A stretch of 64,000 bases of DNA from the NCBI RefSeq assembly GCF_030684315.1, contig NC_081370.1:34366728-34430727 (forward strand). The letters run 5' to 3'. Made by a program: the position numbers and the translations under genes. Origin of the DNA: Stegostoma tigrinum (Eukaryota). The notes under the pieces were generated by a model. It was not told where the DNA came from. It did not search any database and saw nothing but the letters and a program-made list of their open reading frames with translations. Positions 2,439-54,900 of this stretch are shown here, piece by piece (within the stretch, counting starts at the first letter, position 1; each line of letters begins with the position of its first letter).

Positions 2439-2759
2439 CTGAACCAGAGGTCCATTTGCCCACAGATGACATTGCTGTTCAGAATGGAACAGAGAGATCT
2501 GTGAGTTGTACTGTTAAAGGATTTTACCCTCAGAAACTTGATCTCACCTGGGAAAAGGAAACAACAAAGGGAATTGAGGAACTAAAAGATAATTTCTGCA
2601 CTGGTGCACTAATTTCCATGGATAATGGAACTTTCAGTGTTTCTAGCAGACTATGGATTGAGCCAACATTGAAAGATAATGGTAATGTATACAGGTGTAA
2701 TGTGAAACACCGCTCGCGCCCCGAAGGTATTATCAGCACAACTCGACTCACAGTTACAG
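2439..2759 (+). CDS. NCR3LG1-like: Gene A extracellular Ig C1 exon (321 nt)
   Basis: tgtag|CT..ACAG|gtatgt. Motifs SCTVKGFYP, LTW, NGTFSVSSRL and YRCNVKH, plus two NGT sequons. Confidence 0.95.
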
Positions 2760-5700
2760 GTATGTTCTCTTTGCAAGATATTTTTTACTCTGCTATTGTT
2801 AAAACACACACATTTAACGAATTTATGCCCTTTGTCTAATATTGAATTTCAACTGAAATATCCATCTGACTTAAATTAGGAGTTCATTCTTTTCCTAGTA
2901 CGCAACTAAATTATTTTTGCCTACAATAATGACTATTAAGAGTAACTAGATATGACATTTCAAAATCTCAGAATGTGATCCAACTGTACCCATGTTCAAA
3001 AGCTGTTAGAGTTACATGTGAATTGCTTTTAGAATCAGTTTTAATGATTTTTATGAAAATGCTAGCGAAAATAATTAAGTAGAGTTATGTTGAAGTTGAC
3101 TGTACAGTGCAGTCTGCTTATGTTCATATGGTTGATAGTGTCCAAACTAAATCGAAAATATTGGGGAAAAAATGAGAAAAGGTAAAGGGGAAAATAGGCA
3201 ATCATCGGTACACAAACCTGATTAATTATATTATCAGGTAGGTCTATGATTAATGTTGTAGTTCCATTCCTGACATCACTACTTTAGATGTAACAACTTG
3301 AATTTAACCATGGATTTCCATAGCACTCAGTGTTAAAGAGAGAGTTGGGTTCCTTTGGACACCTTTAGACTCCCAAAACATTTATTTGCCCAGAAAAACC
3401 AATATATTGAAATATTGTGCCATACACATGGTACACTGTGCATTCCGAGCCAAAAGAGTGTACAAAATAATGTAAATCACTGACTATAACAAGTACTGTG
3501 TAAATTCACATTTATTTATTTTAGTAAAGGGCCCCAGAATTGTTGAACTGTTTTATTTCTCCAGATGGGTTTATTTGCAACACTTCATGCCAAGTTTGGT
3601 ATTGGTGATACCAAATGAACATTAATGGTTTCAATCTAGATTCCTTAATTTCAAAACTGTCCAGTACAGTCTACTGGGGTGCAGCTCTGAAACAATAGTT
3701 TCAGTCATCATGTACGTAAATTATAACAGTGTTGATGTAACTTCATTTCCTTGATAATGAGTGTGACATTCTGTGATTATCCTCTCTACCCTAGAAGTTT
3801 TGTTTTCCTTCAAATGATACAAAAGTAGCTGGTGAGTACATACCATGAGGTCGGTGGATTCCTCAGCATGAGGACTGGGCTTTTTCTTTTCCTCTGATCA
3901 ACCTGTTTAGTTCATCTATGGTACACATCTAGAGTAAGTGGGAGATAAACTTGGGTCTCCTGGCTCAGGTGTAGACCCTACCACTGAATTGCCAGAGCTC
4001 CACATGAGCCATTTTTAACTTTTTTTAACTTCCTGCCCGAAGCCAGCGTGATTTTGTTTTCAAGGGAGGACATTAACTGTACAGGACTGTTATTTCAAAC
4101 TCTTTTAAAACTTTATTGTGTTTAATTATCTTAAATTATTGTTTAATACATCATAGCAAAGCTGTGACAGTTCGCATGGGGTAGTCTATTTTTTGTGGTA
4201 ATTTTAAATTCATTGCTTCTTTACTTGTGTTGCAAATTTCAGAGCCTGAGAGAGATTCTTCAGTTGGAACAGTTGTTTGGAGCGTATTTGGTACATTCAT
4301 TATTTGTGCAGCTTTATTGTTTATTGCATGGTTCTACTGGAGAAATAAAAAAGGTACCATATCCACTTGTGAATATATTATTCCTGTAATTCTTTTAGTT
4401 ACTTCTTGCATGTATTACCTATAGAAGTCCTTGTGCTCTTTAAGTCAAGTCCCCATAGTCTTCGGTCCGCCTCCCCCTCTCTCCCTATTTATTCCAGTTC
4501 CCTCTCCCCATCCCCCTCTCTGATGAAGGGTCTAGGCCCGAAACGTCAGCTTTTGTGCTCCTGAGATGCTGCTTGGCCTGCTGTGTTCATCCAGCCTCAC
4601 ATTTTATTATCTTGGAATTCTCCAGCATCTGCGGTTCCCATTATCTCTCTCCCCATAGTCTCGGATGACCATGCTCTCATTAGGGGGAGATTGACTGTTG
4701 GTGGATTAATCTGAGGGTCACCACACCTCAGAAGAGGGGAGTGGTTGAGAAAGAGGAGCTTTCATAGTAACTTAAGGCGATTCAGTAATTGAACCACACT
4801 GTTGGCATCCCATTGCATCACAAACCAGCTTTCAAGCCAACTGAGCTGTTTGTGCTCCTATTTTGGTGTAATATCAGAACTTGGAGCTTACGCTTTAGCT
4901 GCGATTGGCAATCCAGTCACAAATAGTTTTGTTAGTAGTTTTTCTATTCGAACACTCATTGCACATTCACATCATCGTTGATTCATTTCAGTTTTTTTTT
5001 CTAATTTACTCAGGCTTTGTGGATGTTGCTGTCTGAGCCAGCATTTATTGCCTATTTCTAGTTATTTTTGAACCACTGCAGCCCATTTAGTGCTAGTACA
5101 CCCACAATGCTGTTAGGGAAGAAAGTTCTTGGATTTTAGCCTGGCAACGGTAAAGGAGTGGTGAGAGATGCCCAAAGCTGAGTCGTGAGTGGCTTGGAGG
5201 GGGACTTGCAGGTGGTGATTTTCCCATGTATCTGCTGCCCTTGTTCTTCAAAATGGTAGTGATTGTGGATATCAAAGGCGCTGCCCAAGGATGATTGGTG
5301 AATTTCTGAAAGGTATCTTGTAGGTGGTGCCCACTACTGCTACTGAGTGCCTACAGTGGAGAGACTGAACGTTTGTAGATGTATTGCCAAGGCTGCTTGA
5401 TGTGGATCATGTCAAGATTCTGAAGGAGGTGGAGATAAATTGTCCACTTGGCACTTCTGGCTGAAAATGGCAGCAAATGCTTTACTTTTTTTTTTGCAAG
5501 GACTTGTTGGGCCCCAACTGTTGAGGATGGGGACATTTTCTGATCATTCTTCTTCCAGTGAGTGGATGTGGCAGGGCTGCAGAGCTTAGATCTGATCCAT
5601 TGTTTGTGGGATCACTTAGCTCTGTCTATTACTTGCTGCTTATGCTGTTTAGCATGAAGCTAGTCCTGTTCTGTAGCTTCACCAGCGTAATTCCTCATTT

Positions 5701-8700: not shown

Positions 8701-11700
8701 GTCCATTTGGTGCAGGTTACCCAATTTTTTAAAAAAATTTAGATGTATAGAGAACAATTTATTAGTTTTGTATGTGTGCAGTAGTCAGTTTCTTAGTAAT
8801 TTAAAAGAAAAATGATATTCAAAAGCTTTTAAATCTTGACTGCTGGTGTCCATGTATCTTCCAAAAAGGCTCATTTTGAGAGAAAAGTAAAATACTGCAG
8901 GTACTGAAAATATGAAATTATAAGCTGATAATGCTGGAAAACCTCAGCAGACCCAGCCGCGTTCTACTGAATGAATATTGACCAGAAGCATTGATTGTGT
9001 TTTCTCTCTATGGTTGCTGGTGCCCTACAGAGTTTTTATTACTCTTAATTTTAAGAAGCTCGTCAAAAGCTCGCAATTGGCCCAGTTAGTAGAGGTTGTA
9101 GTAATGATTAATTAAATCTTGGTATGCAACCAGCTTCTAGCACAAAAGACAGAATTTTTGCTTGCTACCTCTGAAATTAAGTGCTATGTGACAATGGCTA
9201 TTGGCAACTTTCTCTACTCAGCAGAGGTTAAGGACCTAAAGTAGTCTATTAATTGCCACTTGGGGGCATTACCCCACCAGTTCCTTGATCACCTACCTCC
9301 CCAGGAAGGAAGAACAGTGGCTAGTCTCCCAACTAGAAAACCGGGGTGACTGACCTGCCAGAGGGTCACCTCTGAAATTTCTCTGCCATTTGACAACAAC
9401 ATCCCCATCCCCCAAAGTCTTGCCAATTACCACCTCCTCCACAAATGTCCACATCTTGTGAGAAGACGATAAAAGACACAACTTCTCATTGCTGGATCAC
9501 CTACAGAACAGATTTTGACCAACAGACACTGGGACTCAGGGACTCTGCTGCTCTTGCTCAGTTCTTAATGAATTGATTCTATGGCAATAGGGTGAGTTAT
9601 CTCACTGGTGTAGGTGATGTGTAAGCTGCTACCTAACGTATTCCCTTTGAGATCAAAAGGGGAAAATCCCAGCCAAGGTTTCCATTGGATGTAATTTGCA
9701 TGTTTTTCATCTGTTGAGAAAAGATTGGATTGGATTGAGAAAAGACAGCGTAAACCTTTCTGAAACTCTCACTTATGTATCCTGGTGTTTGCTAATGTCA
9801 CTGGACTAGTAATCCAGAAGCCCAGGCTATTGCTTTGGTAAACATTAGTTCAAGTCCCATCACAGCAACTATTGCAGTTAAATTCAATTAATAAATCCAG
9901 AATTGAAAGTTACACGACTCCAGACGTGCGCCAGTTTACTTGAATCTCAACCGCTGTCTGAAATGACTGAACAAGTCCATCCATTCAAGGGAAATTCATA
10001 TGGGCAACAAGTGTTTGCTTTGCCAGTGACCTCCTCATCCTATGAAAGAATAATTTAAAAAAAACACAGTCATTGACTTGCATTTGCACTCTGCCTGCAG
10101 CCTAGCAAGGAAATGAAACAGAGTAAGCAAATAAGAACATTTCCATTGTTAAATTTTAATCTTCTTTATTAGTTCCTCCAGAAATTATTGAAATGAAACC
10201 CCCTTCCATCCTTCACCATTTGGAGGAAGATTTCATCGATTACCACGTCTCTGGATTTAGACCTTCGAAGATTCGCGTTGTTTTAATCTTGAAGAGGAGA
10301 GAGAATGGAAATGGAAAAAAAATTTTAGAATGGCACAGCACAGATGGGAATAATGTAAATAATGTACAAACAATGTGCCCAAATAATCAAGATGAAGTGC
10401 AGCTTTTTGTAAATAATTGTGAAGAGGATAGATCTTTTTCACCTTTGGAACCAACTTTATCCTGTAACAGTAATAGAACTTTCAAGTTAAAGGGCACAGT
10501 CAAAGTCTGTCCTGATGTGAAAAGTGATAATGGGGCTGAATTAATTCTTGAAGTTTATCATGATGCTGTTTCCCAAGTCAAGTCAATAGCCATAAGACTG
10601 GATGTTAAAGCAGGTAAACCATGTACACGTTTTTTTCACAATTTTATTTATGCTTCATGAATCCATTCTGTTTTTTTTTGTAAACTTGTGTATTTGTCCA
10701 TACAATGTAATTGTATTGTTAGTAGTGGTCGTGTAGTTTTGCCACCTGGAGTCTGTCTACATTATAGAAAATGCAATCTGTGATATTAGTATTTTCTTGT
10801 TCTTATTAATACGTGGAAATTCTTTCAGTTTCAAGAGATGACTTCTTTATTTTGTTTCCCTTTTCTAAAGTCCCGCCAAAAATTTCAAACATTGTGGTGC
10901 CACTTCGTGTCTGTCATAATGAGCCTGCAGCCTTGGTTTGTTCAATAATTGGATTTAAACCAAATTCTCTTCAAATCACATGGCAACAAATCAGGAAGGA
11001 TAATAAAGTGGAACTTGTTCGATTTCATCAGGGCAGGACTGTCTTTGCTACTAACAATGGTAACAAGTGCAAGTATCATCATCAAATCAGTGAAGTAGAA
11101 TATGAAGATAAATCCTATGGTCTTACCAGTGCCCTAGTTATTTTGCCAGCAATACCGCAAGACCAAGAAACAAGGTATATCTGTGAGGTACAACATGATG
11201 AGTCTTACACTATCAAGCAGAGAGATACAATTCTGCGAATTACAGGTATGTCATTCTTCTGACATCCCTTGTGTAGGAATATGGATTAAATGTGTTAACT
11301 GATGCTATTTTCTCATTTTTGTCTGTTAAAAGCCTACGGTATGTTTAATCTTTTCATTTCTTTTTCAGCCCCACCAAAATTGGACAGGATAGTGTGTAAT
11401 GTAGAAAAACCAGTTGCAGGAGAGTGCATAACTTTGCAGTGTCAAATACATTCTTTTTATCCTCCTGGAATAGTAATAACATGGTTGAAACAAGGTAAAA
11501 AAGTGACAGAAAAATTTGAACAAAGTGAGCCCACACTGGGAATTGATGGACTCTATCGCTTGACCACTAGTTTAAAGGTTACACTGAGCAGAACTGATGT
11601 TGGGAAGAAATATGCTTGCCAAGTAAGCCATGAAAGTCTAGAACAGCCATTGGAAGTTGACTGGAAGGTTGATCATTTCAGTAAGTAACTATTGTTAAAT

Positions 11701-14700
11701 CATCATGCAGAAACTATAAGACAATGAAACTTGCTAAATCATAGAATCCCAACAGTGTTTGGCCTGCTGACTCCATAGCAACCCTCCAAAGAACATCCCA
11801 CCTAGATCCACCCCTCCCAACCTTATCCCTGTAACCCTGCATTTCCCTTGACTAATTCACATAACCAGCAAATTCTGGGCAATATGAGCAATTTAACATG
11901 GCCAGACCATCCAACCTGCACATCTGTGGACTTTGGGAGGAAACTGGAGCACCTGGAAGAAACCCACATAGTTGGGGAGAATGTGCAAATTCCACACAGA
12001 CATTTCCCTGAGGGTGGAATCGAACCTGGATCCCCGGTGCTGTGAGGCAGCAGTGCTAACTACTGGAGCTCTGTGCCATGTGAATAATCTCCAAATTAAA
12101 ATAAATTACCAAGATTCCACTTTTTTTGTAGCTTTACATTGGTACAAATCAGAACCACCAAATTAAACATGAATTAGCAGATACGTGAAAAGGTAAATTT
12201 GCTTTATATAGTTAATACAACAAGATACAGCATATGCAACCACAAATGTTTGCTTCACTTATTGCTGAAAAGTTTTTTTATTCACATAGGGTGGTTCAGG
12301 AGTCCTATCTGACAATAACGTTCACCTCCAGGGTTCACAGATACAAGTATCATCACTATTAACTCACACCCCTACAGTATCTTCTGTTCCTTGCATCATT
12401 GACATTCCTGAGTGTGTAGCTTTCAAAATTTCTTTTCAGTTGAACAACCAAAAACAAGCTGGTTCACGGTTTGGCCACTTCTGGGAAAACACCAAGCTCT
12501 CTGGCATCTCTGAGCTATCTTCATTGAAATAATTTCAGTACTTAAGCTCTTGTGTCCTAAAGCAGCACAGCACATACAAACATCAATTGGTACTCCTCGG
12601 GTGCCTGCCTTTCTGACATATACTAGGTTATATCACAGTTCTGGAAGAATTGTCATACCTAATTTAGTTTTTATAACACCTTCACAAAACTAACCAAGAT
12701 GCCACCGTTACAAAATCCAACCTCCAAGTATGTGGAAAATTAGGCTTGAATGGCCTCACGATATTCAATAACAAAGTTGCTGGAAAAGCTCAGCAGGTCT
12801 GGCAGCATCTGTGAAGGAAAAAACAGAGTTAGCGTTTCAGGTCCTGTGACCCCTCCTCAGCTCTGAGGAAGGGTCATCGGACCCGAAACGCTAACCCTAT
12901 CTTCTCCTTCACAGATGCTGCCAGACCTGCTGAGCTTTTCTAGCAACTTTGTTTTTGTTCCTGATTTACAGCATTGGCAGTTCTTTCAGTTTTTATCACG
13001 CTATTCAATGTTCTGTCCCAAAATTGATGAGTTGCCAATCCCATCTGAAGCTGAAGCACTGGCTGCAGCTTTATGCATGTATGAGGGTGCGGGGGGTGGA
13101 ATGAGGGGCAGTGAAATGCAACACTTTGTTCAAGAAAACAACATGTGACAATTTATTAAGGGATACTTGAGATCTTTAAAAATAGTGACATTTTCATTAA
13201 TGCAAACTCAAAACACTCTATTTTGTTTGTCTGCAGTATTAGCACCAAAGGTAACAGAAGTTACAGTTGATCCTGTTCACCCAAAGGTGGGAGAACTTGT
13301 AACCCTTTCCTGTAAAGCTTACGATTTCTTCCCAAAAGACAACGAAATATTCTGGCTGAAAGGGTTTGAGAGAACTAAAGATGGAGTTGAAATGGATGAC
13401 ACTGTATTCGATAGCTCGTCTAGTTTGTACTCTCGACGGTCCAAAAGGACATTCAGTCCAACTGACATGGACCATGGAAAAGAGTTCAAAATGCAGATTC
13501 TTCACACTGGGACTTCAAATAAGCCTGTCTCATCCAGTCATGTTTTGAAACTATTTGGTAAGCCTGGTTCCCAACAAGATTTCAGAGTAACAATTACAGA
13601 ATGTTGAAACGTTATTTAGAATGGACGGATGGTTCAAGTTCATTAAGTTGACTAATGTTTTGTCAGGAAGGTTGATTAGTCCATTAAGTTAGGTCGAATG
13701 ATCCATTTCATTGAATCGCCGCAATGTGGAAGCTGGCCATTTGGTCCATCATGTCCGTACCCACCCTTCCGCCCAAACTCTACTCGAACACTGTAACCCT
13801 GCATTTCACATAGCTAATCCCCATAGCCTGCACGTTCCTGGACACTGTGGGCAGTTTAGCATGGCAGTCCGCCTAACCTGCACCACTTTGGACTGCAGGA
13901 GGAAACTGGAGTACCCGGAGGAAACCCAGATGTGGAGAGAATGTGTAAACTCCACACAGTCATCCAAGGCTGGAATTGAATCTGGGTCCCTGGTGCTATG
14001 AGGCACTAGTGCTAACCACTGAGCTACTGTGCCATAGAATATATCACAAGATTTCACTTTTGCGAAAACCAACAAAGCAAATTTTATACGGAACAGGTTA
14101 AACAAGCAAACTTGACATAATGTTTTATAACTATGTATATTGTGCATTCCAGTTTACTTCTTATTGCACCTAAGAATTATCTTCTGAGATTAATCAATCT
14201 TTAAAGTTATTTACTTATGTAGGGACCTCTGACAGGTAAGCCTCAGCTTTCAGGAAATGTCGTCTTGGTTTCAGCTATTCTCCCCAATAAAACCTTAATT
14301 TACCTTCTCTTGACTGAGGAATCTGCTTTTCATTACTTAGAAGTTAAACTGTTCTTCCCTTTTGTAACACAAAACTTCCAAGGGCCATTGTCGGCTTTCC
14401 ATTCATTTCAAGCTGCACAATCTTCCATCTTCTGTTCTCCCATAAAGTCCAAATTGAGATTAAGCCATCCCCGCTCCAAAATACATTAATGATCTTATTA
14501 GTTTTCACTCTACGTAGAGTGCAGATCTGTCTGTCATCTGTTGTGACTATCATCTCTTAGCGAGCTATGTACCACATGAAATCCAATCTGCAACTGGCAA
14601 AGAGTCAGTTTAAATGAAACCAGAAAATCTTGCCAAGAACCACCAATCTGTATAACAATTTAACATGTTCAGGATTAGTGATACCTTATTTAATGTTTAT

Positions 14701-17700
14701 TCTTTAATGTGAATGAGTTTCACAATTTTCCATCATTCACTAAATACTTTTAAATTAATTTCATTCTAAATCCCAGAACAAAGATGTCTCCAAGACTTCC
14801 CAAACTGAGGAATACAAAAATCACATTTCCATGGTTTTTTTAACGCCATAAAATCATCTGCTGTGTTATGATTTTACTTCTCTAACTGTTAACCTCAAAT
14901 AAAAATAGATTCATAGAATCCTTACAGTGCAGAAGGAGGTCATTCAGCCCATCAAATCTGCACTGACTGTCCCTCATTAGACTTCTTGCCTCATTCTGCT
15001 ACACCTATCGCTCAGACCCATCTCACATTCTACCAGCTGTTTCTACTGTTTGTCAAATGCTGCAGTACCCTCTCTGACAGGAAGACGACATTGCTTTTAT
15101 TTTGAAGATGAATTCAACACCGGCTGGAGAGTGTTTTCACTGACATTCCTTGTTTGCCAGTGACCTCCAAATCCATTTTAGTGGCTCCTTTGGCCCTGAT
15201 TTGTGGTATTCCATCTTGCTTCTGGTTTGCTAATCGCAACTTAAACTTCTTGTATCTTAAAGATTTTGACAGTTCATTATTTTCTTTGGAATGGCCAACA
15301 TTATGTATCTGTTTCACTGACCAAAGTTTGGTGGGAAAGGCTGGGGAGACAGATGTTCAAATATTTGTTGATGATGCTTAAACCTGATGCTATAAGGTTT
15401 GTAATCACTTGCGGTTTCATTCAATTTCAACAGGAATACCATATGTTGAAGATATCAAACTTGTTCCACCAGAAGCCAAATATGGTAGTGACCTTACTAT
15501 GACATGCCGTGTCACTAACTTTCTCCCACAAGACATTAATGCAGCTTGGCAACAAGATGGCAACCAGGTAGTCAAGGAAATCTCAGTTAAAGGACCTGTG
15601 AAGGAGAAAGATGGATGCTCTTCTGTGACATTTCAGTTACAAATAAGACCAACTGCACTAAATTTTAATCAAGAATTTTCTTGCCAAGTGAGCCATGTTA
15701 AATTAAAGGCTCCAGTTACAAAAAAGACAGTTTTAATACTTCCAGGTAGGTTTTACCATGACTCTTTTCTTTATAAAATTTGAAAAGTTCCAAGTCATTT
15801 TTAATTGTGGTTGACTAGGTCAAAGAGAATTAATTTGATTTCATCTTTAGAGGTAGGAGAATGGCATGAAACAAACTATTTCAAGATAAATGACCGCGAG
15901 CAAATTAGAATTCAATAACTCTTAAGAATTCAACAGATTGTAGAAGAAACCTTAACTGGTGATACATAAAAGAAGGATTTTTGATTTGAGATCATTATGT
16001 TCGCTGTTTTAAAAATATATCCAAATAAATTCAGCTTTTGAAGTAATTACATTGATAGAAACTAGATCGCAGAAGTTCTGAACATTTTTGTTTTTGCCTC
16101 AGTTTGTCAGTCTTCTAAAAAACTTTTAATATGGATCTTTCTAGTACAAGTTGGACAAAATAGTTAATATTATGATTTTTGAATCCAGTTTTGTTTTGGT
16201 CTGTCTTTTCTGTGACAGTACTTTGTGTGAGTTATAATGCAGTGAACTTTATTCTTTGGGAGCTCCTTTGATATTTATAGGTAAAAATGTCTCTCACTGC
16301 TGCTGTAAAGTGGTATATTGAAATACCCTACCACTATCTTTACTTATAAGGTCAGTGTTGTTTTCAAAAGAATCTTTTGAATATGATCATTAGTTTATCT
16401 TTCATATATTTTGTGTACATCGCAGACTATAAATGTATGTTTAGTTTCATTTTATATTGTTCATCTTAAAGATTAATGGCTGTGGAACAAAATTCAATCA
16501 TTCATAAATCTTTTATTTGTTTTTCAGCTTTGTCTCCTACCTTGTCTTCTATTAAGCTTGATCCAAATTCCTTTGAAGTTAATCAGAAACTAACATTCAG
16601 TGTTACATTGACAAAATATGCTCCTGCTGCAGTCGAAATAAAGTGGTTTAAAAACGAGACACGTTCAAATATGATTCACAAACCTGTGGAAATTGCTAGT
16701 GATGGTCTTTGCTCATCAGTTACAAGCACAGAATTTGTTGCAACTGAGAAGGATGATGAGTGTGTCATCAGATGTGAAGTGTTTCATCCAGCAACAAAAG
16801 AAATTCAAGAGAAAACTTTCACATTATTCCTTAAAGGTGAGTGCCATTTTGTTAGAGATGGGTTGAGAACAAAGCATTTCATCACAGTCACAAACAAAAA
16901 CAGAAATTGCTGGAAAAGCTCAGTGGGTCTGGCAGCACATGTGGAGAGAAATCAGAGTTAATGTTTTGGGTCTAGTGACCCTTCCACGGAACTGTGGACA
17001 GGCCACTGAACCCAAAATGTTAACTCTGATTTCTCTCCACAGATGCTGCCCGACCAGCTGAGATTTTCCAGCAATTTTTGGTTTTGTTTCTAATTTACAG
17101 CATCTGCAGTTCTTTTGGTTTTCATTTCATTAAAATGTTATAATTGTCATGTTGAGTTTCTTGAATGCAATGTATTCATTTGAATGTTTACTTGATGTTG
17201 AAACTTTGTCGATAAACAGATTTTATTGCTGTGCTGAGAATAGTTAATTTGTGATGACTTCAGATTCATTACTCTTAAAAGAGCTACTTAATACTCCAAT
17301 ATTCTAAGGATGTACTACATTTAACTAACTGTTTCTGTGCTCAGGTATTAAAAATGAAGAATCGCCTTATTCAGATCTATTGAAAGATGAAGGTAAAGTG
17401 TTCATCTTGAAAGTTTTTGTTTTGTGCATGTTTGGTTTTAATCCATATTGATGTCAGTGTAGGGTATCAGACTATGCAGAAAATAATGTAGATATAACAT
17501 TTCAGATGGAGAGGAGTGCTGTCTTCATTTCTGGCTATTAGAATGGATCTAATGGGTGATCCTTTTAAAGTGAAACAGGGATGATATGATGTAATCCAGC
17601 ATCCCATTTTCATCATCACTGCCCTAATTACACACAATTGTACCTGTGTTCAAATAGAATTACTGACTAGGGTTGCGAGCTGCTGGGTAAAAGACAAAAA

Positions 17701-27900: not shown

Positions 27901-28584
27901 CCAGTGCAATGTACAACACGGACTGCCTACTCCATGACTGTCCTACAATGTTGACCCTGTTTGTACATGGAATCTCCCTGCTACAGCTGCTGCTGGTAAA
28001 CCCTTTGACAGATACATCCTTCACAGAGGGAGCTAACAATTAAGAATATTGAATGGGGATGGACAAACGTGTCACCATTGGCCAATGTCAGGTGTATGCA
28101 CCTTTTCCCCAGATGCCTATTCAGGGAGCAATGTACGTAGCCATAAAGTACTGCTGGAGGTCTTCAGATGCATTTACTGTCTACATAGAAATTAACAAAC
28201 TCCTGACAGTTCACACCAAAAACATTTATGCAGAAAGTTATATTGCCTTCTACCTTTTATTATATAAGCCTCTAAAATACCTTCAGTAGGTTTTCTTCAC
28301 GCTCTCCCTCCCATTGAGTCATTCTACAGTCTCTGGCTCCCCAGTTGTAGAGAGGGCCAGCCAGAAGTGAAGCCCTTTGGCCGTAGAATGTTGGTGGGAT
28401 AACCACAGGGCCAAGTGTCTGGATGGGTCTGACGTACTGAAGGTCGCCTTTTCTAGAGGCAGCTTGAACCTCTTAGGGTCAGAGAGGTCAAGTAGGATTT
28501 TGGCTTCAGAAGCTCAGAGACAGGAAGTGTTTCAGAGGCGAGACACATTTTCTCTACGAGAAAGCAGGAAATATCTTAGTAGGA

Positions 28585-39853: not shown

Positions 39854-40188
39854 GAAGCAATTGAGGTTTGAAGGAAGTCTACATTTTTAGATAACACAGT
39901 GTGGAGCTGGAGGAACACAGCAGACCAGGCAGCATCAGAGGAGCAGGAAAATTGACGTTGGTGGTCGGGAGAAGGATCCCAAACCAAAACGTCAGTTTTC
40001 CTGCTCCTCTGATGCTGCCTGGTCTGCTTTGTTCCTCCAGCTCCACACCTTGTTATCTCTGACTCCAGCGCGGGCTGTTTGACAGCTGGGCACTGATCAT
40101 GGGTAGGACCTTGGTCTCCCTCCATGGCTCCTAATCTGAGGTTCTGACCCAGTGCCCCATCAACTAACTAGGCAGTTCTTGCTATCTC

Positions 40189-41326: not shown

Positions 41327-41464
41327 CAGTTCTTGCTATCTCTACGTTTTTAGGTTGTTCTGGTTGGGGCGTTTTGATTTAATAGATACAAATTCAGTAT
41401 TCGTACCCAAGAGTAGTTCTAATGAGTTTGCATATTTTCTTTTTAAAACGGATATGGGTGCTCA

Positions 41465-42629: not shown

Positions 42630-42639
42630 AACGTGCTCA

Positions 42640-42839
42640 GTTTCGGAACTGTGTCCACCTTCACCAAGCTGACTCTGCAATCGCTGCGCCCCCCAGCGGT
42701 GGAAATTGGACAGTCGGCTCCGCCCGAGCCCGGTGAAAGTGAAACTCGGGCCGAGCGGAAGCTGCCCGTTGGTGTGCTGTCGGGTTTACAACGAGAGAAG
42801 CGCCGGATCGGGTCACGCACACACACACAGAGAGGGGCC
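42640..42839 (+). promoter_or_regulatory. CpG-rich promoter and 5'UTR of gene B
   Basis: Local CpG enrichment, inverted CCAAT (ATTGG 42705), GC box (CTCCGCCC 42718), ISRE (42735) and ETS-like CGGAAG (42756), all just upstream of the leader ATG. Confidence 0.75.
42735..42746 (+). promoter_or_regulatory. ISRE / IRF-binding element
   Basis: GAAAGTGAAACT matches the GAAANNGAAACT consensus and lies about 95 nt upstream of the ATG. Confidence 0.8.
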
Positions 42840-42912
42840 ATGGGCCCGGTGAGGAGCTCGCTGCCGCCTCTGGTCCCGGTGTTAGCACTGCTGACCCTGG
42901 TACCGCACTCAG
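42840..42912 (+). CDS. NCR3LG1-like: Gene B signal-peptide exon
   Basis: Kozak context GCCATGG. Encodes MGPVRSSLPPLVPVLALLTLVPHS; donor CAG|gtaaag is phase 1. Confidence 0.88.
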
Positions 42913-45900
42913 GTAAAGGTCGGGGATGGGGGAGCGGCCATTCGGCCGTCTTCGGGAATGCTGGGCTCAAAAGTTCAGGCTTTGTACTTTGCCCGTGCAT
43001 TTTCTCCGGGTGTAAAATAGGAGATGGGCATTTCCTCTCCTAGGACGCTATTTAATATGTTTTGTGTTGAAATTGGCTAAATAAAGCTTAAATTCCTCGT
43101 CGAGCTGGAGAAACTCAGAAATTCACCGTCTGGAGAGAGAAAATAGAATTAATGTTTCGGGTCCAGTGACCTTTCTTCAGCACTTCTGCGCTTTTAAAAA
43201 TACAATTGTACCCATTTGGACGTACATGGAATAGCGTAGGTTAGATGGGCTTGAGATAGGTATGACAGGTCGGCACAACATCGAGGGCCGAAGGGCCTGT
43301 ATTGTGCTGTAATGTTCTATGTTCATTTTGCTTCTACTTTCGTTACGGAAATAGCATTAGTTTGAATAATGTGTTTCAAAAATATATATAAGGTGTAGAG
43401 CTGGATGAACACAGCAGGCCGAGGAGCATGAAGGCTGACGTTTCGGGTCGAGACTTTCTGGAGAAGCTCTGCACCGTGTTACCTCAGATTCTCCAACATC
43501 GGCAGCTCCTACTATCCCTTTCAAAAATATATGTCGTTATTCTGCCTTGCACGGGCTGTTTGACAGCTGGGCACTGACTACTGGTAGGATCTTGGTCTCA
43601 CTCCAGAGCTCCTGACCTGAGGTTCTGACCCAGTGCCCCATCAACTAACTGGGCACAGCCTGCTTTAATACAGGGTTGTGGAATCATACTGTACACTAGA
43701 GGTCCATGGAGTCTGCACCAATGGAAGACTACTCGAAGTCTACACTAGTTCCCCAGACCATCACTTGGCCCCCAGCCTTCAATGTTATGACATTTCAAGA
43801 GCTCATCCATGTACCTTTTAAAGACTTTTGAGGTTTCCCAACTCAGCTTCCTTCCTGTGTAGTGCATTCCAGATTTCCGTCACCCTCTGGTTGAGAGAAA
43901 ATACCTCCAAACACCCTCTAAGCCTCCTGTCTGTCACCTTAAAATCACACCCCCTTATTATGTGCTATTTAGCTAAGGGCAAAGGCTGCTTTCTGTTTGT
44001 GCTGTCCCTGTCCCGCATAATCTTACGTCTCTGGCTTAGGTCTCCTTTCAGCCTTCCCTGCAACAATGGTAATAACCTGAGTTTCTGCAGCCTCTTTCCT
44101 TAGCTAAACATCATGAAAATGCAAGGCAACCAATTTAATGGGTTGTGAGACTATCTTACATCTATTGCTTGCTTTCTTTTAATTTTCGCTTCAAGCAATG
44201 TATTCACTGCTTGTGGAAGCCCCCAGTTTCATCAGGCAAATACTATGTTGATAATGTTACAATTTCCCGCAAGTAAAATTTTCACCTAAGTGCTGCTTTG
44301 TGACTAAGTACTTTTTTTGGAACACAGACAGAAATAGGGAAAGCAGCTACCCTTCATATCTCAGCACCTAGCATCTTTGTGCTGATTAGGAAATGTTTGT
44401 TGCCAATACTCTCTTTTCAGAATGGCGATAAAAGTCGTGACATCTGTCCAACTTTGCCCCGGAGATATTTGAGGAGTTATCCTTGGTCTAACCTTATTTT
44501 CAACTATATGGGGTCTAGGTGATATATAATGAAGACATAGCCTCTTTGGCTACATGTACAGCAATCACACCCAGCTTGACACCACCACCACCTCTCTTCA
44601 AACTCTGTCATTTTCTCTCTCAGCTTGATTGTCTGACATCCAGTTCAATCAAAAACAGGTTGAAATTTCTTTTAAACTGAAAATCACTAAGCCATGACCG
44701 ACTGCAGTATAGGCACCTTTATCATAGTTGGATTCCCTCAGTTTCAGCTTTCCTATTTACAATTGCAGTGTCCTGCTTGATCCCAAGTTGGAGTTCTGAC
44801 CTCATTTTCTCTTCATGCCAAGACCGTCTACTTCCACGTTTTTATCTATACCTTTGTTTTAAATTGTATCCTTGAGATACGGGCATATCTGGCTAGGCTG
44901 GGATTATTTGCATATCTCTAAATGCCCAGAGTGCACTTGAGAGTTGCTCTGGGTCTGGAGTTGCATGCAGGCCAGAACAGGTAAAAGCAGCAGCATCGTT
45001 CCTTAAATGATGTTAATGAGCCAGTGTGTGTTTTTTCACAACTATCAGCAGTGGTTGCATTTTATTGTAGAGCTATTTTTTAAAATTCCTCCTTCTATTG
45101 AATTCAGATTGGACCCTTTTACTCAGATAAAAACCAAAAGAACTGCAGATGCTGTAAATCAAAAACAATGCCGCTGGAAAAGCTCAGCAGGTCTGGCAGC
45201 ATCTTTGACAGAGAAAACAAAGTTAATGTTTCGGGTCCAGTGACAAATAATTCTAGCCTAGCCAGATATGACCATATCTCAGTTTTGAGTTACTAGTCCA
45301 GTGACATTAAAATACACCACTTGGGCCTCGTTTGTTTTATGAAGACCCTCATGCAATCTTTTGACACCATCTAGGCTCCTGTTTTGTCTGAGCATTGAAC
45401 TTTTTTTTTCTGCAATGCTTGGTGCATTATTGTTGTCCAGGGTGTTCTACAAATGCAGGATGTTGGTGGAATTGTTGAAATGACAGTAATCCTTCAGTCG
45501 ATTCAGGACTTAATGTTCAAGATACATATTGTTCTGATAGCATCTTTATTGAAATAGTTGGGCTGCTGGATGAATTATCTGCTGATAATTTTGATCTTGA
45601 TTGTTGCAGAACAAGGTGACCTAATTGTGTCGATGAATTCAGGAATTGTGAAAGCCACCGTAAATAAAGATGTTGTTCTGGAGTGCCGAGTTTCTGACTA
45701 CAGAAGAAAAATTGAGCTTAAAAACATGGGCGTCCAGTGGTTCTACCAAGAATCAGGCTCTCTAGATGCGCAGAAACGAGAGGTTTATCAATTCATTGCT
45801 GGCAAACATATACCATACAGAAAAGGAGCCACAATTATTGACGATTATTTGAAGGAAGGAATAGCTTCCCTTTTTCTTCCAAGTGTGCAATTTTCTGAAG

Positions 45901-48900
45901 CGGGAGATTACACTTGTATTGTTTTTATAACCCCGGACAGTGGAAGTGGATGGTCATCAATGACTGTTTCAGGTAAGAGTCACAACCTGATTCTTATTGT
46001 CTGCTGAATTGTGCCTGCATTAAATTTTAAAATGGGTCAACTGAAAACAGTCAATCATACCATCTGCACACAAATATGAGCAGTCTACTGCAGTGCTGTC
46101 CATTGCACTTGCCACAAGTAGCAAATCAGTCACAGTCATGGCGGATTAATGCTGTTGGGTTATTTTTGGGCCATGCAACACTGAGCTTCATCAAAGTTGT
46201 AGCTGTAGGTGTGAGGACGCTTACTGCTTGCTAGATCATAATATGTCGCCTGCCCCCAGCTGAGCAAAGAAGGAATTCACTTTGCTGCTTGACAGGCCGT
46301 AGATATTGGTTTGACTGTGTTGTTATTAGGCAGACATCCCATGCCAGTCAGGCCATGATACGTTTATCAGAACATTAAGTTATTGGTCTCTCGTGACCGG
46401 GAAGCTGAAGGACCACTTTCTCAATGAAACAAGTCATTAGTTAACCTTCTCTGTTCCTGTTCTCTCTGATGCCTCCAGCTGATGCGTTTAGATCACCAGG
46501 ACCACTTTGTGATGCACTATGAAAGAAGGGCAGTCAACAACACAAATATATTTGTTCTCAAAATTGATCTTGGAGAAGTTAGTGACATAGGAGATATGAA
46601 ATGAAAACTTCGTTGGTTAGCAAGCAGATGGCTTTTTCAAAACAGTTAAGATATATGAATTACAGACAGTACAGCATGGCTAGCTATAAGGCTAGAACTG
46701 TGCAATTTTGACAGCTGGAGCAACACTAGTGTGTTCAGCCTTCATCCCAATTGCAGGAGGTTTTTGATGAGATAAAAATACAGCATCGTGAAAGGCCTGG
46801 TGACAACACAACCAAAGCAGGTATCAGAACAGAACCCAGAACATTGATACTTTTCAATTCTAGTGGGCTGCCATGTCTCCTAAAATATTAATTTTAATAA
46901 AGCATAGTTACCGCTTGAAAATCTTATTTTTGGAACAAACTGGAGTATTCAAAACAGAATATATCAGTCAACAGCCTGTCACCAGCCTTTGAGAGCAGAC
47001 AGAGCGGTGACAAAGTTATATGGGACCATGAAGCAACAGGAATAAAAGGAACAGTCAGAGAGGACAAGATAATAAAGTGTGAAGCTGGATGAACACAACA
47101 GGCCAAGCAGCATCTCAGGAGCACAAAAGCTGACGTTTCGGGCCTAGACCCTTCATCAGAGAGTCAGAAAGGACAGGTGTGAGGAAAGGATATTTTGAAC
47201 ACCAGACATTTCTGTGCAATCATTACATAACCAGAAGATGTGAACGGGTGAATACTTACGCCAAATATTAAACATCTGATATATTGTTATTTGCAGCCCC
47301 GCCAAAGGTAAGCTTATCTGCGACTGCAATCACAATTGAACATGGTACGGAGAAATCAGTGAAATGTGACAGTGTTGATTTTTATCCTGTCTCAATTGAG
47401 ATGGGCTGGATACAGAAAACCAAAAACGAGGAACAAATGCTTTCAAAACACATCTGCACAGGATCCCCAGTTCAACATGAAAATGGAACCTACAGCGTTT
47501 CCAGCCGACTGAGGTTGAGACCAACCCTTGAAGACAGTGGCAATATTTATATCTGCTATGTGAGGCACTCATCACTTAATAAGGATTTAAAACTGGAAGC
47601 CCAACTGACTGTCAAAGGTATGTTTCATGTTTCTGTGATCTTGTACGTGAGGTCTGGTTTATGTTAGGGAATGCAGCTTCCAAAAAAAAACACTGTAAGT
47701 TTACTCTTATTACACATGAAGGTTTAACACAGTCATTTGAAATTCTTCTGTGGTTTACGGTTAGTGGCACTGATGAAATAGGCAAAAGGGAATTTTGAAC
47801 AGAATGGTATTTGTGCTTAAATTTCAAATTATGGATTTATTTGGTCCATTTTTAAACTGAACCTTCAGTGCCCCTGTTTTGGTAATAATTTGAAATTTAC
47901 ATTAACTAAATAAACTCTGTTGAAAGTTGTGCTTATGGAGTTTGATGGCTGTATCAAGTTTGATTTAAAGTTTTTCACAATTAACAGCTTTCCAAAACTG
48001 ACTTTCAAGTTTGGCATTTCAACAATACTTGAACAAAATATTTGATAGTTATAGCCTATCAAGGTTTCTGAAAAAAACTTGAAAGAAAAATATCACCAGA
48101 AGAGCCCTGAGTGGTTCGGTCATTCCTATTGTATGTGTTGCCTTTCCACAAGTTTGACACGCAACAATTTTGAAAAGTGCTATTGTAGTGGTAAAGCATT
48201 TAAAATAATTTATATGTCATGAGACTTTCTGTTTTTAGCTACATGAAAAGAAATTGCCCTTTGCTTGGTCAAACATTTCACTTCCCTTTTAAACTTGCCC
48301 TATATCCCTACATAAGTACATAACTTCTGTTGGCTTTCCAACTAGTCAGGAGCAATTGTAGCAATGAGCCATATTTTGCTTAGAAGTAAAAGGGAGCTTT
48401 TGCTGATAAATGTAAATTAACCAGCGATTTGTAGCAAAGAAGTTACATCCCGTGAACTGAGAACCAATAGAAGTTGCTAGTTGATTTTTTTTTAGCTGTG
48501 CGATTAGTTTTGCAAAAATGCTAACCTTCTCATAATTTCCATGAACTTGCTATGCTTGAATACTAACTATCCGTTAAATTTACCACAGAGAGTTAATTCT
48601 AATAATCAGCATAAGTAGCTTTTAACAGTAAGATTATTGTTAAGGACTGACAATCAAGCTGTCTGCCCTAGAAAGTGGCCACTCATACGTGTGATCTTTC
48701 CTTCTTTCTGATTGTGAATTTTAGGTTTTTTCTAACATTTTAAATCTTAATGTTTTTGCCTTAGTTTTTCTATCTTTTCAGATGCTTTTGTGTCATAGAG
48801 TCATGGAGTCATACAGCATGGAAACAGGCCCTTTGGCCCAAACTGGTCCATGCTGACCATGGTGCCCACTCAGCTAGTTCCAATTGCCCACATTTGGTCC

Positions 48901-51900
48901 ATGTACCTACCCAAATGCTTTTTAAATGTTGCTATTGTACCTGAACTCAACCACTTTCTCTGGAAGCCCATTCTGTGTGCACACCACTCTCTGCATGAAG
49001 AAGTTGCTCCTTAGGCCCTTCTCAAATCTTTCCCCTCTTGCCTTAAACCTATACCCTCTAGTTGAAAAAGTCTGTGTGCGTTCATCCTATCTGTGCCCCT
49101 CATTCTCCTATGTTCCAAGGAATAAAGTCCTATCCTGGCCAACGTCTCCCAAAACTCAGGCCTACTAGTCTTGGTAACATCCTTGTAAATCTTTTTGCAT
49201 TTTCAAGTTTAACCTTGTCTTTCCTATAACAGGGAGACCAAAACTGTGCATGATACTCCAAGTGCGGCCTCACCAGCAACTTACACAACTGTAACATAAC
49301 ATCTCAACTCCCACATTCAGTGCCTTGACCAACGAAGGCCAGCATGCTAAATGCCTTCTTCACCACCCTGTCCAACGGTGACTCCACTTTCAACAAACTA
49401 TGTACCTGTACTGCTAGATCCTTCTGTACCACAACACTCTTCAGCATCTACATGATTTACTGTATAAGTCCTATCTTTCTGTTTCATATCCTTCTTCCTT
49501 AACTTGATTTGACATTCAATTAACCCAGGCTATTTCATGTTCCTTTGTTGTCCTTTCTCACTTTGTTCTCAATCCTTAATTCTCATTGTTTAGAGAAATA
49601 AGGTGTTTGTTCTGCTTTGGACTATCCCAGTTACTCTTCCTTTGCAGCATTATTTTCTGATCATACCTCAGCAAACTTGTCTTTAAAATGCTTTAAAATT
49701 CTCCACAGCAGTAAAATCTGGTCCCATACTGTTTAGAACTTGGTCAGTATTGCCAATATACCATTTGAGCTGGGACAATGCCTTGCTGTTAATCACTTGG
49801 TCATTTTCATCATAATGTTACTGCAAACATTGATTAACGTCTTGCTTCCTCTCTGCCTTTGTTCAGTCTTTCCTCATGTTTCAACAGCAACCATCTATTC
49901 AGCCTTTTTATTTGCTTAATTTCTCCAGTTGCTTCAGTTCAGGGCTGCAGTGTCTTTGTTTCCAAAGTCTGTACTTATCAACCTTTCTCCCTCTAATTCT
50001 GATCAACAGCCCTTTTAGATTTTTGAACGCCAATGCTTGATCTAACTCAATCACTTTTCTTTGTATCCTTCCAACTGGCTGAGTATCCTCTGCCACATGT
50101 TTCAAAAGCTGTTATCTTACTCTCGCCTTCTTTCTGAATGTTCAGAATTGACCTTTCACATCCCTTAGAATGCAACGTTTTGCACTATTGACTGTGGGGT
50201 TTTTTTCAGCATCATGTTGAGGCATTTGGATTTAAGATACTACTTATGTAATTTTATCATGCTTCTAACTATAGCTAATGTAACCTTTAATTCATTCTTG
50301 GATGTAACTTAGATGTTCATCATCAAGCTGAGGTGGTTGAAATCGGCATTGTTAATACTCTTATGTTAATTCTGGATTATCTCGGACAATCCAGGATTCC
50401 TAACTAGATTTGTTTGTTTGTTTGTTCATTCATTTAACTATTAAGTAAACTCAAAACATCCTTCCACAAAAACTTAAGCTTCATCTCTTGATATCCCAAC
50501 AAAACTAATTTCAACTTTGACCTGACTAATTAAATATTTTTCAGTCACTTCATTTCCAGCGTTGATTTATGATTGTGTGTTTTTTTTCTTCTCGTGTTAC
50601 TGCTTCCTTTTCCATGCGAACCCATGTTGCCTGCCTCTTGTCCTCAAGATCATTTTTGCAAGTGTTGCTGACACACCCACGCCTATGGAATAGGACTAAA
50701 AGTTGACCATATTAAACTGTTGAGCCTTTTCCATCAATAGGATAATTGCTGACCTCTAGCTTCAGCTGCAGTTTCACACCTCTGACTCATTGAATTGTTC
50801 CAGTGCAGTAGGCAGTCATTTGACCCATTATGTCGACAACTGCCCTCCGAACATTTAATGCCAATCGTTTTGCAGTTCCTCATAAATGTGTGCACTGTTC
50901 CTACTGTTGGTGCCATAACTTGGTTGATTAAAGTGCCAGTCCAATAAACAGGTGATTCTGGATTTGCATTCCAACAATGCCTGCACTTCACTCATCGTTT
51001 TAGGGTTTGGTTAGCTCAGTGGCTGGCTGGCAGGTTTGCCACACAGTGAGGTAACCAGCATGGTTTTAATTCCCACAGCGCAACAGGTTACCATTGAAGG
51101 ATTCTTCTTCTCAATTTCTCCCTTCACCTGAGGTGTGGTGAGCTTCTGATACAACCACCATCAGTTGTTTCTTCCTTGAATGACACCACAGCCCTATGAT
51201 TATTTTATCTTTTTGCTTCTTACTTTTATTTAAATAACCATCTAATACCATCTTGAATGTTTCAGTTGAACTTGACTTCTTCACGCTTCTGGTAGAGCAC
51301 TTCAAACCTTCATGACTCACTATGTGAACAAGTTTCTTCTCATTTTGAATCTGCTCCTTTTGCAAAAGTCCTCCAAACTGTTCCCTCTGGTTCTCAAACC
51401 TTTTACAAAGTGAGGGCAGTTTTTCCCTCTCCACTCTAGACCCCTCAAGATTTGAAAATTTTCTTTCAGCTCTCCTCTGTCTAAGGAAAACAGTCCCAAA
51501 TATTCCAATCATTAGGAAGTTTCTCATTCTGGAATGTTTTCATAAGTCTCTTCCATACACTGCCTAGTGCAATCACATCTGTCCTATAGCGTGGTGTCCA
51601 GAACCGTACACAGTGCTCCAGCAGAGGTCCAACTCGTGTCCTTTATATGTTCAGCACAGCCTCCCTCCTGTTATGCGCTATGACCCTCTAATGAAGCTAG
51701 AAAACTGTATGCCTTATTAATAGCTGTCATGATCTGTCCTGGCATCTTTTCATGACTTGTGTGTGTATATATACACACCAAGGTCTCTCTTCTCCTGCAC
51801 AACTTTTAGAATCATACAGTTTTGCACTGTCTCTCCATGTTCTTTGTACCAAAATGTGTCAACCCTCTCTTCTCTGTATTCAACATCATCGGCTGTCTGT

Positions 51901-54900
51901 TGTCCACTGCAGCAGCTATCCCTGAATGGCCTTTAGAAGTTCTGCACTGCCCTTCTTTACATCAACATCTTGGAACCGTGAGGAGACAGAAATAATTTAT
52001 GTATAGGAAAAGCAAAGGCTCCAGTTATTATTGTCCGCAATTATTATCCTTTTTCTTTCTGCAGTTTTCTCAGGAATTCCACTACACAACTTCCTCAAGC
52101 CCAAAAATATCCATTAATCATTTCCTATCCCGCAACCAATTCTTGCTACTGTCTGTTTAACTCCGTGACTTGCAGCTTGCTTGGCCAGTCCGCTAATAGC
52201 AATGTACTGAAAGAATTTTGCAAATCCATGTACTTCACATCAACAGCCTTGCTCTCGTCAACCCTTGATGTTATCTCTTCAAAAACAATACATGTTAGTT
52301 AGACATGACCTACCTTGAATAAATCCATGCTGACCCTTCCAAAGTAATCCACAATTTTCATTTTTGCCTATTAATTTTATCCCGAACAATTTCTCTCAAG
52401 ACTCCCCCACCACCACAGAGAGATCAGATGGTTGGTAATTGTTAAGTTGATTGTTTGAAATTTTTTTTGAGTAGGGGCACAATGTTTCCTGAATCCAGGC
52501 AAGCTTGAAAGATTATTGCCAGTATCTCTGCAATTTCTACTTTCACTTCCTTTATCTTCGGATACAGCTCATCTGATCCCAATGCCTCATGAACTTTAAG
52601 TAGTGAAAACTTAGTTAATACCTCCTTATTGATTGTAAGCCCTTCTAGACTGAGTTTCCTCCTGTCTCACCATGGCATAGGTAGCATCCATCCCAGTGAT
52701 AGATGCAGTGTGTTCATCTAACACCTTGGCTCTGCCTTTTGTCTCTGTGTAAATCCCCTTTTTGATTCCTAATCAGTCTTGCTTCTCCTTTCATCACCAT
52801 TTTACTGTTGATGTTCTTATGGAAGACTTCTTGTTGTTTTATTTTGTTAGCTGCCTGCTTTTTTGTTAATTATTATCTCTCTTTGCTCTTACTTGCCCCT
52901 CCACCTCCCTTTTGAACCATATGTATTTAGTTTGGTTCTCAGTTGCATTTACTACCCTACACACGTCATGATTTTTCTTCTATCTCATCCACGGAGCTCT
53001 AGATTTGTTTGTCTTAGCTTTTTTTACTAGTTTGAGTATATTTATCCTGACTGTATTCAAACCATCTCCCATTTGAAGATAGCCTATCGATCAGCTAGTA
53101 TTTATCCCACCAATCGATGATTCCAGTCTATTTAGCCCAACTGTCCCAGTTGGTTATTCTTGCTCTGGATGTTCAGCGTCATTTTCTAACATTATCCTAA
53201 ACCTTGTGATACAAGATCACTGTCCACTAAATGTTCCTCCACTGTCACATGAGAATCAGGTGGGCTAAGTAGGTCAAAAAATAGGTCTAGCAGTACCTTG
53301 TTTCTTGTTGGATTGAAGGCAGACTATGGTAAGAAATTCTCCTGAATGCAATCTAGCAATGGTTGCCCCTTCCTGACCCTTTATAGTACCATTATCTCCT
53401 ATCCCATAAATTAAATAAGAAGATATCTCATATGAATAATTAAAGCCCATCTTTATAACTGCTCACTGTTAACATCTATCATTTCTCTGCAGATATGTTC
53501 TTCTGTATCTTTCCCACTAGTTGATGGTTTGAAGTCTGCAGTAAGCAATGCAATTGCACCCTTTTTTATTCCTAAGCTCTCATCAAATCATTTCTGTCCG
53601 TAACCTCTGAAAAAATCCTCTTTCTTTATTGTTGTATTCTTCTTCTTAACCTGAAACACCTCCCCTCCCTTTATTTCCTTTCTTATATTTATGAACACCT
53701 TGTAACCTGAAATATTTAACACTTATACCTGCTCTTCCTTGACACAGGTATCTGTCCTTATAGAGACATCGTAATTCCATGTGACAATCTGTAACTTATA
53801 ACTCCCCAATTTTAATGATGTTCTGTGAATTCACATACGTGCAGTTTAATTCTGATTTTAGACTTCATTACTTACACCTGTATTCCGACTTCACTTATTA
53901 ACATGTTTTTCTCTGCTTCTGCACTAGCAGCCTCTCTTTGGCATTTTATGTACCTTGATATTAGGTCCTGCCTTCTGTTCCCATGTCCTACTGAATTCTT
54001 TTAAACCTTTCCCAACCACACCAGTAAAATGCCCTGCGTTCTGTCAGGGGTGGGCTATATGGCTTGCACAGGTGCCACCTTTCAAGAGTCAGACCTGGTG
54101 TTCCAGGAATCTAAAGCTCTCCTTCCTTCATGAGCTTTCCAGTCAAGATACATCTGCCTATTTCTACTCATTTGGCACTGAGAATAATCTGGTGATCACT
54201 ATTTTAGAAGTCTGCTTACTATTTTTCTCCATAACTCGCTCAATTTTGATTGCAGACCTCATCCCCCTTCCTGCCTTTGTTGCTAATACTAATTTGGATC
54301 ACAACCTCCGGCTGTTCATCCTCTCCAAGAAGAACATCATGCAGTTGTTCAGTGACATCATTGTTCCTATTACTAGATGGGCAACATATCCACCTGGACT
54401 CAAGTCAATGGTGCCCCTATTTATTAACTCCAGGATCTAATAAGTTGCCTAAGCAATTTCAACTTGCCTAGCTACCTGCAGAGAATTATACATTTGAATC
54501 CTGAGGTCCCTCTGCTCTTATACTCCCCTCTAAGTTATCCTGTTGAGCCTGCATTGTCTCTCTGTGTTCTTCTATAAAAAATACGTTACTTCACATTTCT
54601 CTGCATTGAAATTCAACTGTCAGGCGTTTGTCCATTTGACCAACTTGCTACTTTATTGGATTTAGGCTCCTGAAATCTCTTCTCTCCTCTGTCCTGAGGA
54701 AGTGTTACTCGCCCCAAAATGTGTACTCTGCTTTGTCTTCGCAGATGCTGTTGTTCTCTTTGAGGGCGGCTCAGTGACTCAGCGTTTGCACTGCTGCCTC
54801 ACAGCACCAGGGACTCTGGTTTGATTCAACCCTCGGGTGACTGTCTGTGTGGAGTTTGCACATTCTCCCCGTGTCTGTGCGGGTTTCTCCTGGGTGCTCC

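Follow-up and report, generated by a model that had tools for sequence, protein, structure and literature searches.

The 48-nt linker exon of a zebra shark B7-H6-like gene and its candidate phosphotyrosine site

A 48-nt exon between the last two Ig exons of a zebra shark (Stegostoma tigrinum) gene encodes a tyrosine motif, SPYSDL, and raises the question of what role, if any, such a motif plays far behind a membrane helix. The initial annotation of the window (the whole stretch of 64,000 nucleotides that was analysed) had proposed a hidden micro-exon carrying an ITIM that splicing could turn on and off. The results presented here show the linker exon to be real and already annotated and make its tyrosine a plausible phosphotyrosine site, and the hidden ITIM switch is weakly supported.

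The linker exon and its gene

The exon belongs to gene A, one of two paralogous genes in the window. The features discussed below are listed with their positions in the window and strand. Cys counts give the rows of a 36-row alignment that keep both canonical Cys residues of a domain, with rows gapped at either position excluded.

2439..2759, +, extracellular C1 exon of gene A (the leader and V exons precede the window)
4243..4353, +, transmembrane exon of gene A, 111 nt, phase 1-1, with RNKK after the helix
10173..10613, +, post-membrane Ig domain 1, with a disordered insert containing DEVQLF (10391-10408); Cys pair 2/36
10871..11245, +, post-membrane Ig domain 2; Cys pair kept, 31/32
11369..11680, +, post-membrane Ig domain 3; Cys pair kept, 35/35
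13237..13557, +, post-membrane Ig domain 4; both Cys 0/36
15434..15745, +, post-membrane Ig domain 5; both Cys 8/33
16528..16836, +, post-membrane Ig domain 6, B-strand Cys lost; both Cys 2/30
17320..17344, +, acceptor region of the linker exon with a CTAAC branch-like site and AG; 6.5 bits
17345..17392, +, linker exon in gene A (48 nt, phase 1-1), single copy (sequence and XP_048401614.1; disorder predicted)
17362..17379, +, SPYSDL tyrosine motif (Tyr987); orthologues have SPYSNL, GTYENI, VLYENI, RSYCNI/SSYCNI or AIYSNI
17393..17398, +, donor GTAAAG; 4.7 bits
23519..23811, +, post-membrane Ig domain 7 in the final coding exon, which includes the stop codon; AATAAA at 23905 and 24002; Cys pair 8/26
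45610..61843, +, paralogous gene B with V, C1, membrane exon and three post-membrane Ig exons, running past the window

Gene A encodes a B7-H6/NCR3LG1-like type I protein with V and C1 domains, one membrane helix and seven Ig domains. The best solved relative of its ectodomain was human B7-H6 (E 1e-35), followed by CD276 (1e-21), and the modelled ectodomain superposed on B7-H6 with a TM of 0.86-0.89 (target length), 34% identity and an rmsd of 2.1-2.6 A. A whole-chain fold search was rejected as a guide to identity: most of its matches were unspecific multi-Ig proteins of low TM, and only its B7-H6 ectodomain matches were used. In a quick version of the tree, calculated without mammals, genes A and B formed two cartilaginous-fish clades; the gene A orthologues made up a 16-row clade with support 98. 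Relatives of gene A with the same domain order, and with the linker ahead of the last Ig domain, were found in whale shark, catsharks, white shark, sevengill shark, sawshark, rays and chimaera.

A search with domain 6 yielded four full-length proteins from three species, and the linker is present in all four: XP_048401614.1 (S. tigrinum), XP_020389249.2 and XP_048462991.1 (isoforms of Rhincodon typus) and QTT61906.1, a Ginglymostoma cirratum protein of 1092 residues deposited in GenBank as B7H6. The zebra shark record agrees with the window exons to 98-100% where single exons were aligned, its residues 979-994 are encoded by the micro-exon, and the nurse shark orthologue is 82% identical to it. 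The exon can therefore not be called hidden: it is annotated in these records, including that of the zebra shark itself. Its family is known, and whoever deposited the nurse shark protein already had the complete architecture before them. Among the papers listed in literature searches none treated the exon, the shark-wide form of its motif, the behaviour of tandem copies or a B7-H6 post-membrane Ig array; the architecture may well be described in Flajnik et al. 2012 or Ohta and Flajnik 2015, the likeliest sources on non-mammalian B7H6 tails, supplements included. There is reportedly also a study of shark NCR3 genes.

The position and frame given initially were confirmed by both the sequence and the four protein records. 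The exon is preceded by AG at 17343-17344 and followed by GTAAAG from 17393, and in frame it encodes GIKNEESPYSDLLKDE with phase 1-1; CTAAC at 17325-17329, upstream of it, resembles the branch-site consensus. The Tyr codon of SPYSDL occupies 17368-17370 and specifies Tyr987. The preceding exon ends at 16836 and the next one starts at 23519. With 48 nt the exon lies below the limit of about 51 nt that defines micro-exons, and it is frame-neutral, as cassette micro-exons are. Every other internal gene A exon mapped in the window is, however, likewise 3n in length and phase 1-1, so frame neutrality says little on alternative splicing.

The splice sites, initially described as good, proved adequate rather than strong. 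Scored with a crude matrix built from the other sites of the window, the acceptor (6.5 bits) outscored 4 of 15 other acceptors and the donor (4.7 bits) 2 of 14 other donors. Among 925 open phase-1 3n pseudo-exon candidates from 32.9 kb of intron, the micro-exon ranks 7th, and one other candidate matches or exceeds it at both ends. Splice signals alone would be insufficient as proof of the exon; the protein records do prove it. Positions 17099-17600 were covered without letter differences by one contig per run in four runs from a single sample. These contigs read through the intron, as DNA would, and contain no splice joints; the GAT codon for the Asp of YSDL was confirmed in reads from one sample. 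The window contains one copy of the micro-exon, and blastn and tblastn found no further copies in it.

Several repeats were noted nearby. The intron before the micro-exon contains, at about 16890-17130, a very high-copy short repeat, tentatively labelled SINE-like, with a summed contig depth of up to 2 million versus about 10 on its flanks, and the intron after it holds LINE-like fragments (18300-21900). Between genes A and B, broken ORFs occupy 28500-31400 and 40100-43100; they resemble pieces of reverse transcriptase and GIY-YIG and are tentatively labelled Penelope-like.

The tail behind the membrane helix

Whether Tyr987 could meet a kinase depends on the side of the membrane on which the tail lies. 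XP_048401614.1 consists, in order, of a signal peptide, V, C1, one membrane helix and seven Ig-like domains, and hydropathy, the basic residues after the helix and a predicted helix at 266-286 mark it computationally as a type I single-pass protein. A strong single hydrophobic segment, with basic residues after it, follows C1 in 29 of 30 relatives (three of the 29 have an extra, weaker hydrophobic segment inside domain 2), and Bombina isoform X2 has no membrane segment. The canonical Cys pair is kept in V (35/35 rows) and C1 (36/36). After the membrane it is lost in most relatives in five of the seven domains, and a cytosolic Ig array fits this loss; its retention in domains 2 and 3 adds no support to that location. 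Sequons number 0.94 per 100 residues before and 0.61 after the membrane, a difference that is weak as a topology test. Topology, Cys loss and predicted disorder speak for a cytosolic and accessible site, as the initial reading of the motif had required, whereas domains 2 and 3 keep their Cys; the seven post-membrane Ig domains and the linker are probably cytosolic. Tyr987 lies about 700 residues past the helix, close to the roughly 690 residues estimated before.

A different possibility is that the relevant product is luminal. If the membrane exon were skipped, nine Ig domains and the linker would enter the secretory pathway and the tyrosine would at most be sulfated. The membrane exon (4243-4353) is frame-neutral and is absent in Hemitrygon X6 and in a partial S. 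torazame model; these models and Bombina X2 are hinting at secreted forms, and the Cys pairs kept in domains 2 and 3 would suit such a product. With a membrane segment in nearly all relatives and the Cys pair lost in most of the post-membrane domains, a luminal role for the linker is highly improbable.

Human B7-H6 (NCR3LG1, the NKp30 ligand) resembles the shark protein in its V and C1 ectodomain, its type I topology and the presence of tyrosine motifs in the tail. The human tail is Gag-homologous and has its own ITIM-, SH2- and SH3-type motifs, as set out in passages of PMC2715080, whereas the shark tail is made of seven C1-like Ig domains with the tyrosine in a separate micro-exon, and the tyrosine motifs of the two are not homologous. 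Long proteins of this kind are not confined to sharks: they were found in rays and chimaera, and also in reedfish, coelacanth, lungfish, amphibians and alligators; those of coelacanth, reedfish, lungfish, amphibians and alligators share with the sharks the V-C1-membrane helix order followed by an Ig array, and the linkers of amphibians and alligators are longer than the shark linker and carry no motif. This post-membrane layout, found from chimaera to alligator, probably deserves more attention at this locus than the micro-exon. A C1-like Ig array follows a single membrane helix in both gene A (4243-23811) and gene B (55581-61843). Its length varies: bamboo shark gene A records are without two or three of the post-membrane Ig domains, and whale shark isoform X2 skips domain 1. 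At the position of the shark micro-exon linker, an additional full Ig domain is found in the coelacanth and reedfish proteins and in one from lungfish.

The disordered insert of domain 1, about 80 residues from the membrane, carries a [DE]xxxL[LI] motif, presumably of the acidic dileucine sorting class, in 15 of 36 relatives, compared with a mean of 1.7 and a maximum of 7 in 2000 shuffles. Gene B has EQKKLI at 57125-57142; the counterpart in zebra shark gene A, DEVQLF (10391-10408), is non-canonical. The motif is more widely kept than the linker tyrosine and is a candidate sorting signal, judging by its sequence pattern.

The tyrosine motif across cartilaginous fishes

In the AlphaFold model (mean pLDDT 82, pTM 0.42; the domain folds are usable, their mutual arrangement is not) linker residues 981-994 have pLDDT <50 and no secondary structure, and both flanking domains are modelled as beta sandwiches. 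The linker is thus predicted to be disordered between two predicted Ig folds. The part of the protein after the membrane contains four YxxPhi sites, and Tyr987 is the only one in a predicted disordered segment. SRYFKL, TWYKDI and YDFF were rejected as signalling sites since all three are in predicted beta strands, and the second post-membrane ITIM match is likewise in a predicted strand.

Tyr987 could also be a YxxPhi sorting signal that recruits adaptor complexes and controls internalisation of the ligand. YxxI/L is the best-kept pattern of the linker (see below), its context is disordered, and trafficking control is plausible because the family has an acidic dileucine motif in domain 1. That motif is, however, the better candidate for sorting, and a sorting role leaves the acidic run and the +2 Asn of the linker unexplained. 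Sorting signals are usually membrane-proximal, which also counts against this reading of Tyr987, and it is considered improbable.

SPYSDL does fit the ITIM consensus, S/I/V/L-x-Y-x-x-I/V/L as printed in Table 1 of PMC7226588. Two matches were observed after the membrane, whereas shuffles of these 806 residues contain 1.3 on average and at least one in 75% of cases; the chance of a match in a given 16-mer is 1.8%, and 28 of the 925 pseudo-exons contain one. For the protein as a whole, an ITIM match alone is near chance.

Conservation was assessed in nine shark species of five orders that have the domain 6-linker-domain 7 layout and a 16-residue unit. The Tyr is present in 8/9 units, YxxI/L in 7/9, YxN(I/L) in 6/9 and the ITIM consensus in 4/9; the second Heptranchias copy raises the number of ITIM species to 5/9. 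The +2 Asn occurs in 7/9 units, and Tyr and +2 Asn are each found in 5/5 orders, as is the YxN core (6/12 shark species). The residues at the ITIM -2 position of the nine units are S, S, S, G, G, A, V, R, A, the modal one occurring in 3/9, all from one order. The ITIM consensus of the zebra shark is shared by the whale shark, the nurse shark, the white shark and one of the Heptranchias copies. The zebra shark has SPYSDL where R. typus and G. cirratum have SPYSNL: with Asp in place of Asn the Y-x-N core is absent, and the +2 Asn is also missing in Mustelus.

Three bamboo sharks, assigned to gene A by the quick tree, were kept outside the nine-species count as their records are without domain 6. 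Their units contain no Tyr, and with them included (n=12 shark species) the Tyr is found in 8, YxN(I/L) in 6 and the ITIM consensus in 5. The Tyr is absent in Scyliorhinus canicula, the three bamboo sharks, Pristis, Narcine, Hemitrygon and Callorhinchus, and the Amblyraja linker offers YGKK as its only tyrosine context. Conservation of the Tyr was seen in 8/9 sharks of the same layout and in all their orders, and the Tyr motif is absent from bamboo sharks, rays and chimaera. Measured as columns kept in 5/5 orders, the linker (3/16) resembles the stalk (2/12) and the domain 1 insert (4/25), so that conservation of the Tyr is modest against these controls. In Tyr-less units of S. canicula, bamboo sharks, skate and stingray an Asn lies equally far from the end of the unit; hence the linker Asn may not be kept for Grb2. 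On the accepted species tree the simplest history is a gain of the Tyr motif in the shark stem followed by several losses.

Because the ITIM consensus fits fewer units than YxN(I/L), SPYSDL appears to be a lineage variant of an acidic YxN(I/L) motif of Grb2 type, and the ITIM did not hold as the conserved identity of the site. YxN is given as a Grb2-family site in sections of PMC4263166, PMC11599192 and PMC7226588, including Table 1 of the latter. Similar Y-x-N sequences after acidic residues, as in 6/9 shark units, characterise the ITT and ITT-like motifs of mIgG, CD28, DAP10, DNAM-1, TIGIT and CD28H, for which consensus sequences appear in parts of the same three papers. Those motifs are in short, membrane-near tails; the shark site is about 700 residues off and, in the zebra shark, without the Asn. 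With the classical ITIM receptors (KIR, NKG2A, LAIR-1, PD-1) SPYSDL has the six-residue consensus in common. It differs from them in the non-conserved -2 residue, the single Tyr and the distance from the membrane.

Copy number and the role of the linker

The proposal of an on/off cassette was compared with isoform evidence in the form of gene models. No linker is lacking among 15 records (whale shark 2, S. torazame 3, Pristiophorus 2, Callorhinchus 8) of the four multi-record species without a skipped repeat, and no record examined drops a sole linker copy; for the zebra shark an inclusion model is the only one on record. In species with tandem units, isoform models do drop one unit, of 16 aa in Heptranchias and Chiloscyllium plagiosum and of 15 aa in Amblyraja and Hemitrygon. 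Heptranchias perlo X1 has two tandem 16-residue units, YCNI-x12-YCNI, and X2 has one, the missing copy being the one that fits the ITIM. The x12 spacing equals the upper limit for an ITAM in Table 1 of PMC7226588. The switch is not supported for the single-copy zebra shark and holds only in modified form, as skipping of one copy, in the tandem species. From these sequences the exon seems to act as a spacer that can be repeated and adjusted in number, rather than as an on/off switch for an only copy. Gene B, in which a counterpart had also been looked for, lent no support: the linker or domain 7 was found in 0/12 gene B records, all from other species. Domain 6 is the last domain in seven of these records and domain 4 in the remaining five.

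An alternatively spliced ITIM cassette that recruits SHP-1, SHP-2 or SHIP on demand would explain the consensus match in the zebra shark and in the other species that share it. The micro-exon splice sites are on the weak side, human B7-H6 has S-x-Y-x-x-L in its non-homologous Gag-like tail (from passages of PMC2715080), and sharks possess SHP-1 and SHP-2 (from passages of PMC12151841). The -2 residue is nevertheless G, G, A, R or A in 5/9 units, one match in the tail is expected by chance, whole-linker skipping is absent from the records, and the Tyr is single and distant from the membrane. Such a cassette is judged quite unlikely.

The linker could also be a pure spacer, a flexible acidic hinge before domain 7 whose Tyr was inherited without a function. 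It is present in all chondrichthyan gene A records examined, and tetrapod relatives have linkers unrelated to it in sequence; its tandem expansion occurs with or without the Tyr, the Tyr or Asn was lost in at least four shark lineages, and the proportion of kept columns is that of other disordered segments. A pure spacer does not account for the identity of those columns: an acidic pair is followed by precisely the Y, the +2 N and the +3 I/L that a kinase and SH2 site would have, and this arrangement holds over five shark orders, with the adjoining columns varying freely. The spacer reading is a serious possibility, although a doubtful one.

The best explanation, to which we give about an even chance, is that the exon encodes a constitutive, acidic, disordered cytosolic linker whose Tyr is a phosphorylation and SH2 docking site, ancestrally of Grb2 type rather than a dedicated ITIM. 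The annotated, frame-neutral micro-exon, likely to be constitutively included in the zebra shark, supplies this acidic linker between the last two of the seven Ig domains. Engagement of the ectodomain, presumably by shark NKp30, would lead to phosphorylation of the Tyr by what we infer to be a Src- or Syk-family kinase, and the phosphotyrosine would dock an SH2 protein. The shark-wide acidic-x-x-Y-x-N-I/L pattern would point to Grb2-family adaptors as the binder. In the zebra shark the change of Asn to Asp would have removed the Grb2 consensus and left YxxL, so that the site may bind an SHP-type or another SH2 protein with preference for a hydrophobic +3 residue, or may be decaying. The exon also seems to serve as a modular spacer with fast turnover of copy number and sequence, isoforms adjusting how far away domain 7 lies and how many tyrosines there are. 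Against docking speak the frequent loss of the motif, its position about 700 residues from the membrane and the Cys pairs retained in domains 2 and 3.

A broader and rather unlikely extension of the docking reading is a two-way receptor, in which non-mammalian B7-H6 would carry a cytosolic rod of C1 Ig domains resembling those of antigen receptors, with the micro-exon as an evolvable signalling cassette at its far end. The gene A orthologues differ among themselves in linker sequence and copy number, with YSDL in the zebra shark versus mostly YxN(I/L). Point changes might convert such a cassette into a Grb2-type (YxNI/L), an ITIM-type (S/VxYxxL/I) or a silent form, and the tyrosine number might be set by duplication in tandem together with skipping; in Heptranchias, splicing between YCNI-x12-YCNI and the short isoform with one Tyr could switch between two- and one-tyrosine docking.

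As an annotated feature the exon is unremarkable. It does, however, mark the sole Tyr motif predicted to be exposed in an unusual tail, that of a B7-family type I protein with a long, likely cytosolic Ig array, found from chimaera to alligator and replaced by Gag-like sequence in humans. If the Tyr is phosphorylated, reverse signalling via the NKp30 ligand would have evolved in sharks separately from humans, and the natural variants YSNL, YENI, YSDL, none and two copies would form a ready peptide panel for SH2 binders. If it is not, the locus cautions against ITIM calls from a six-residue match.
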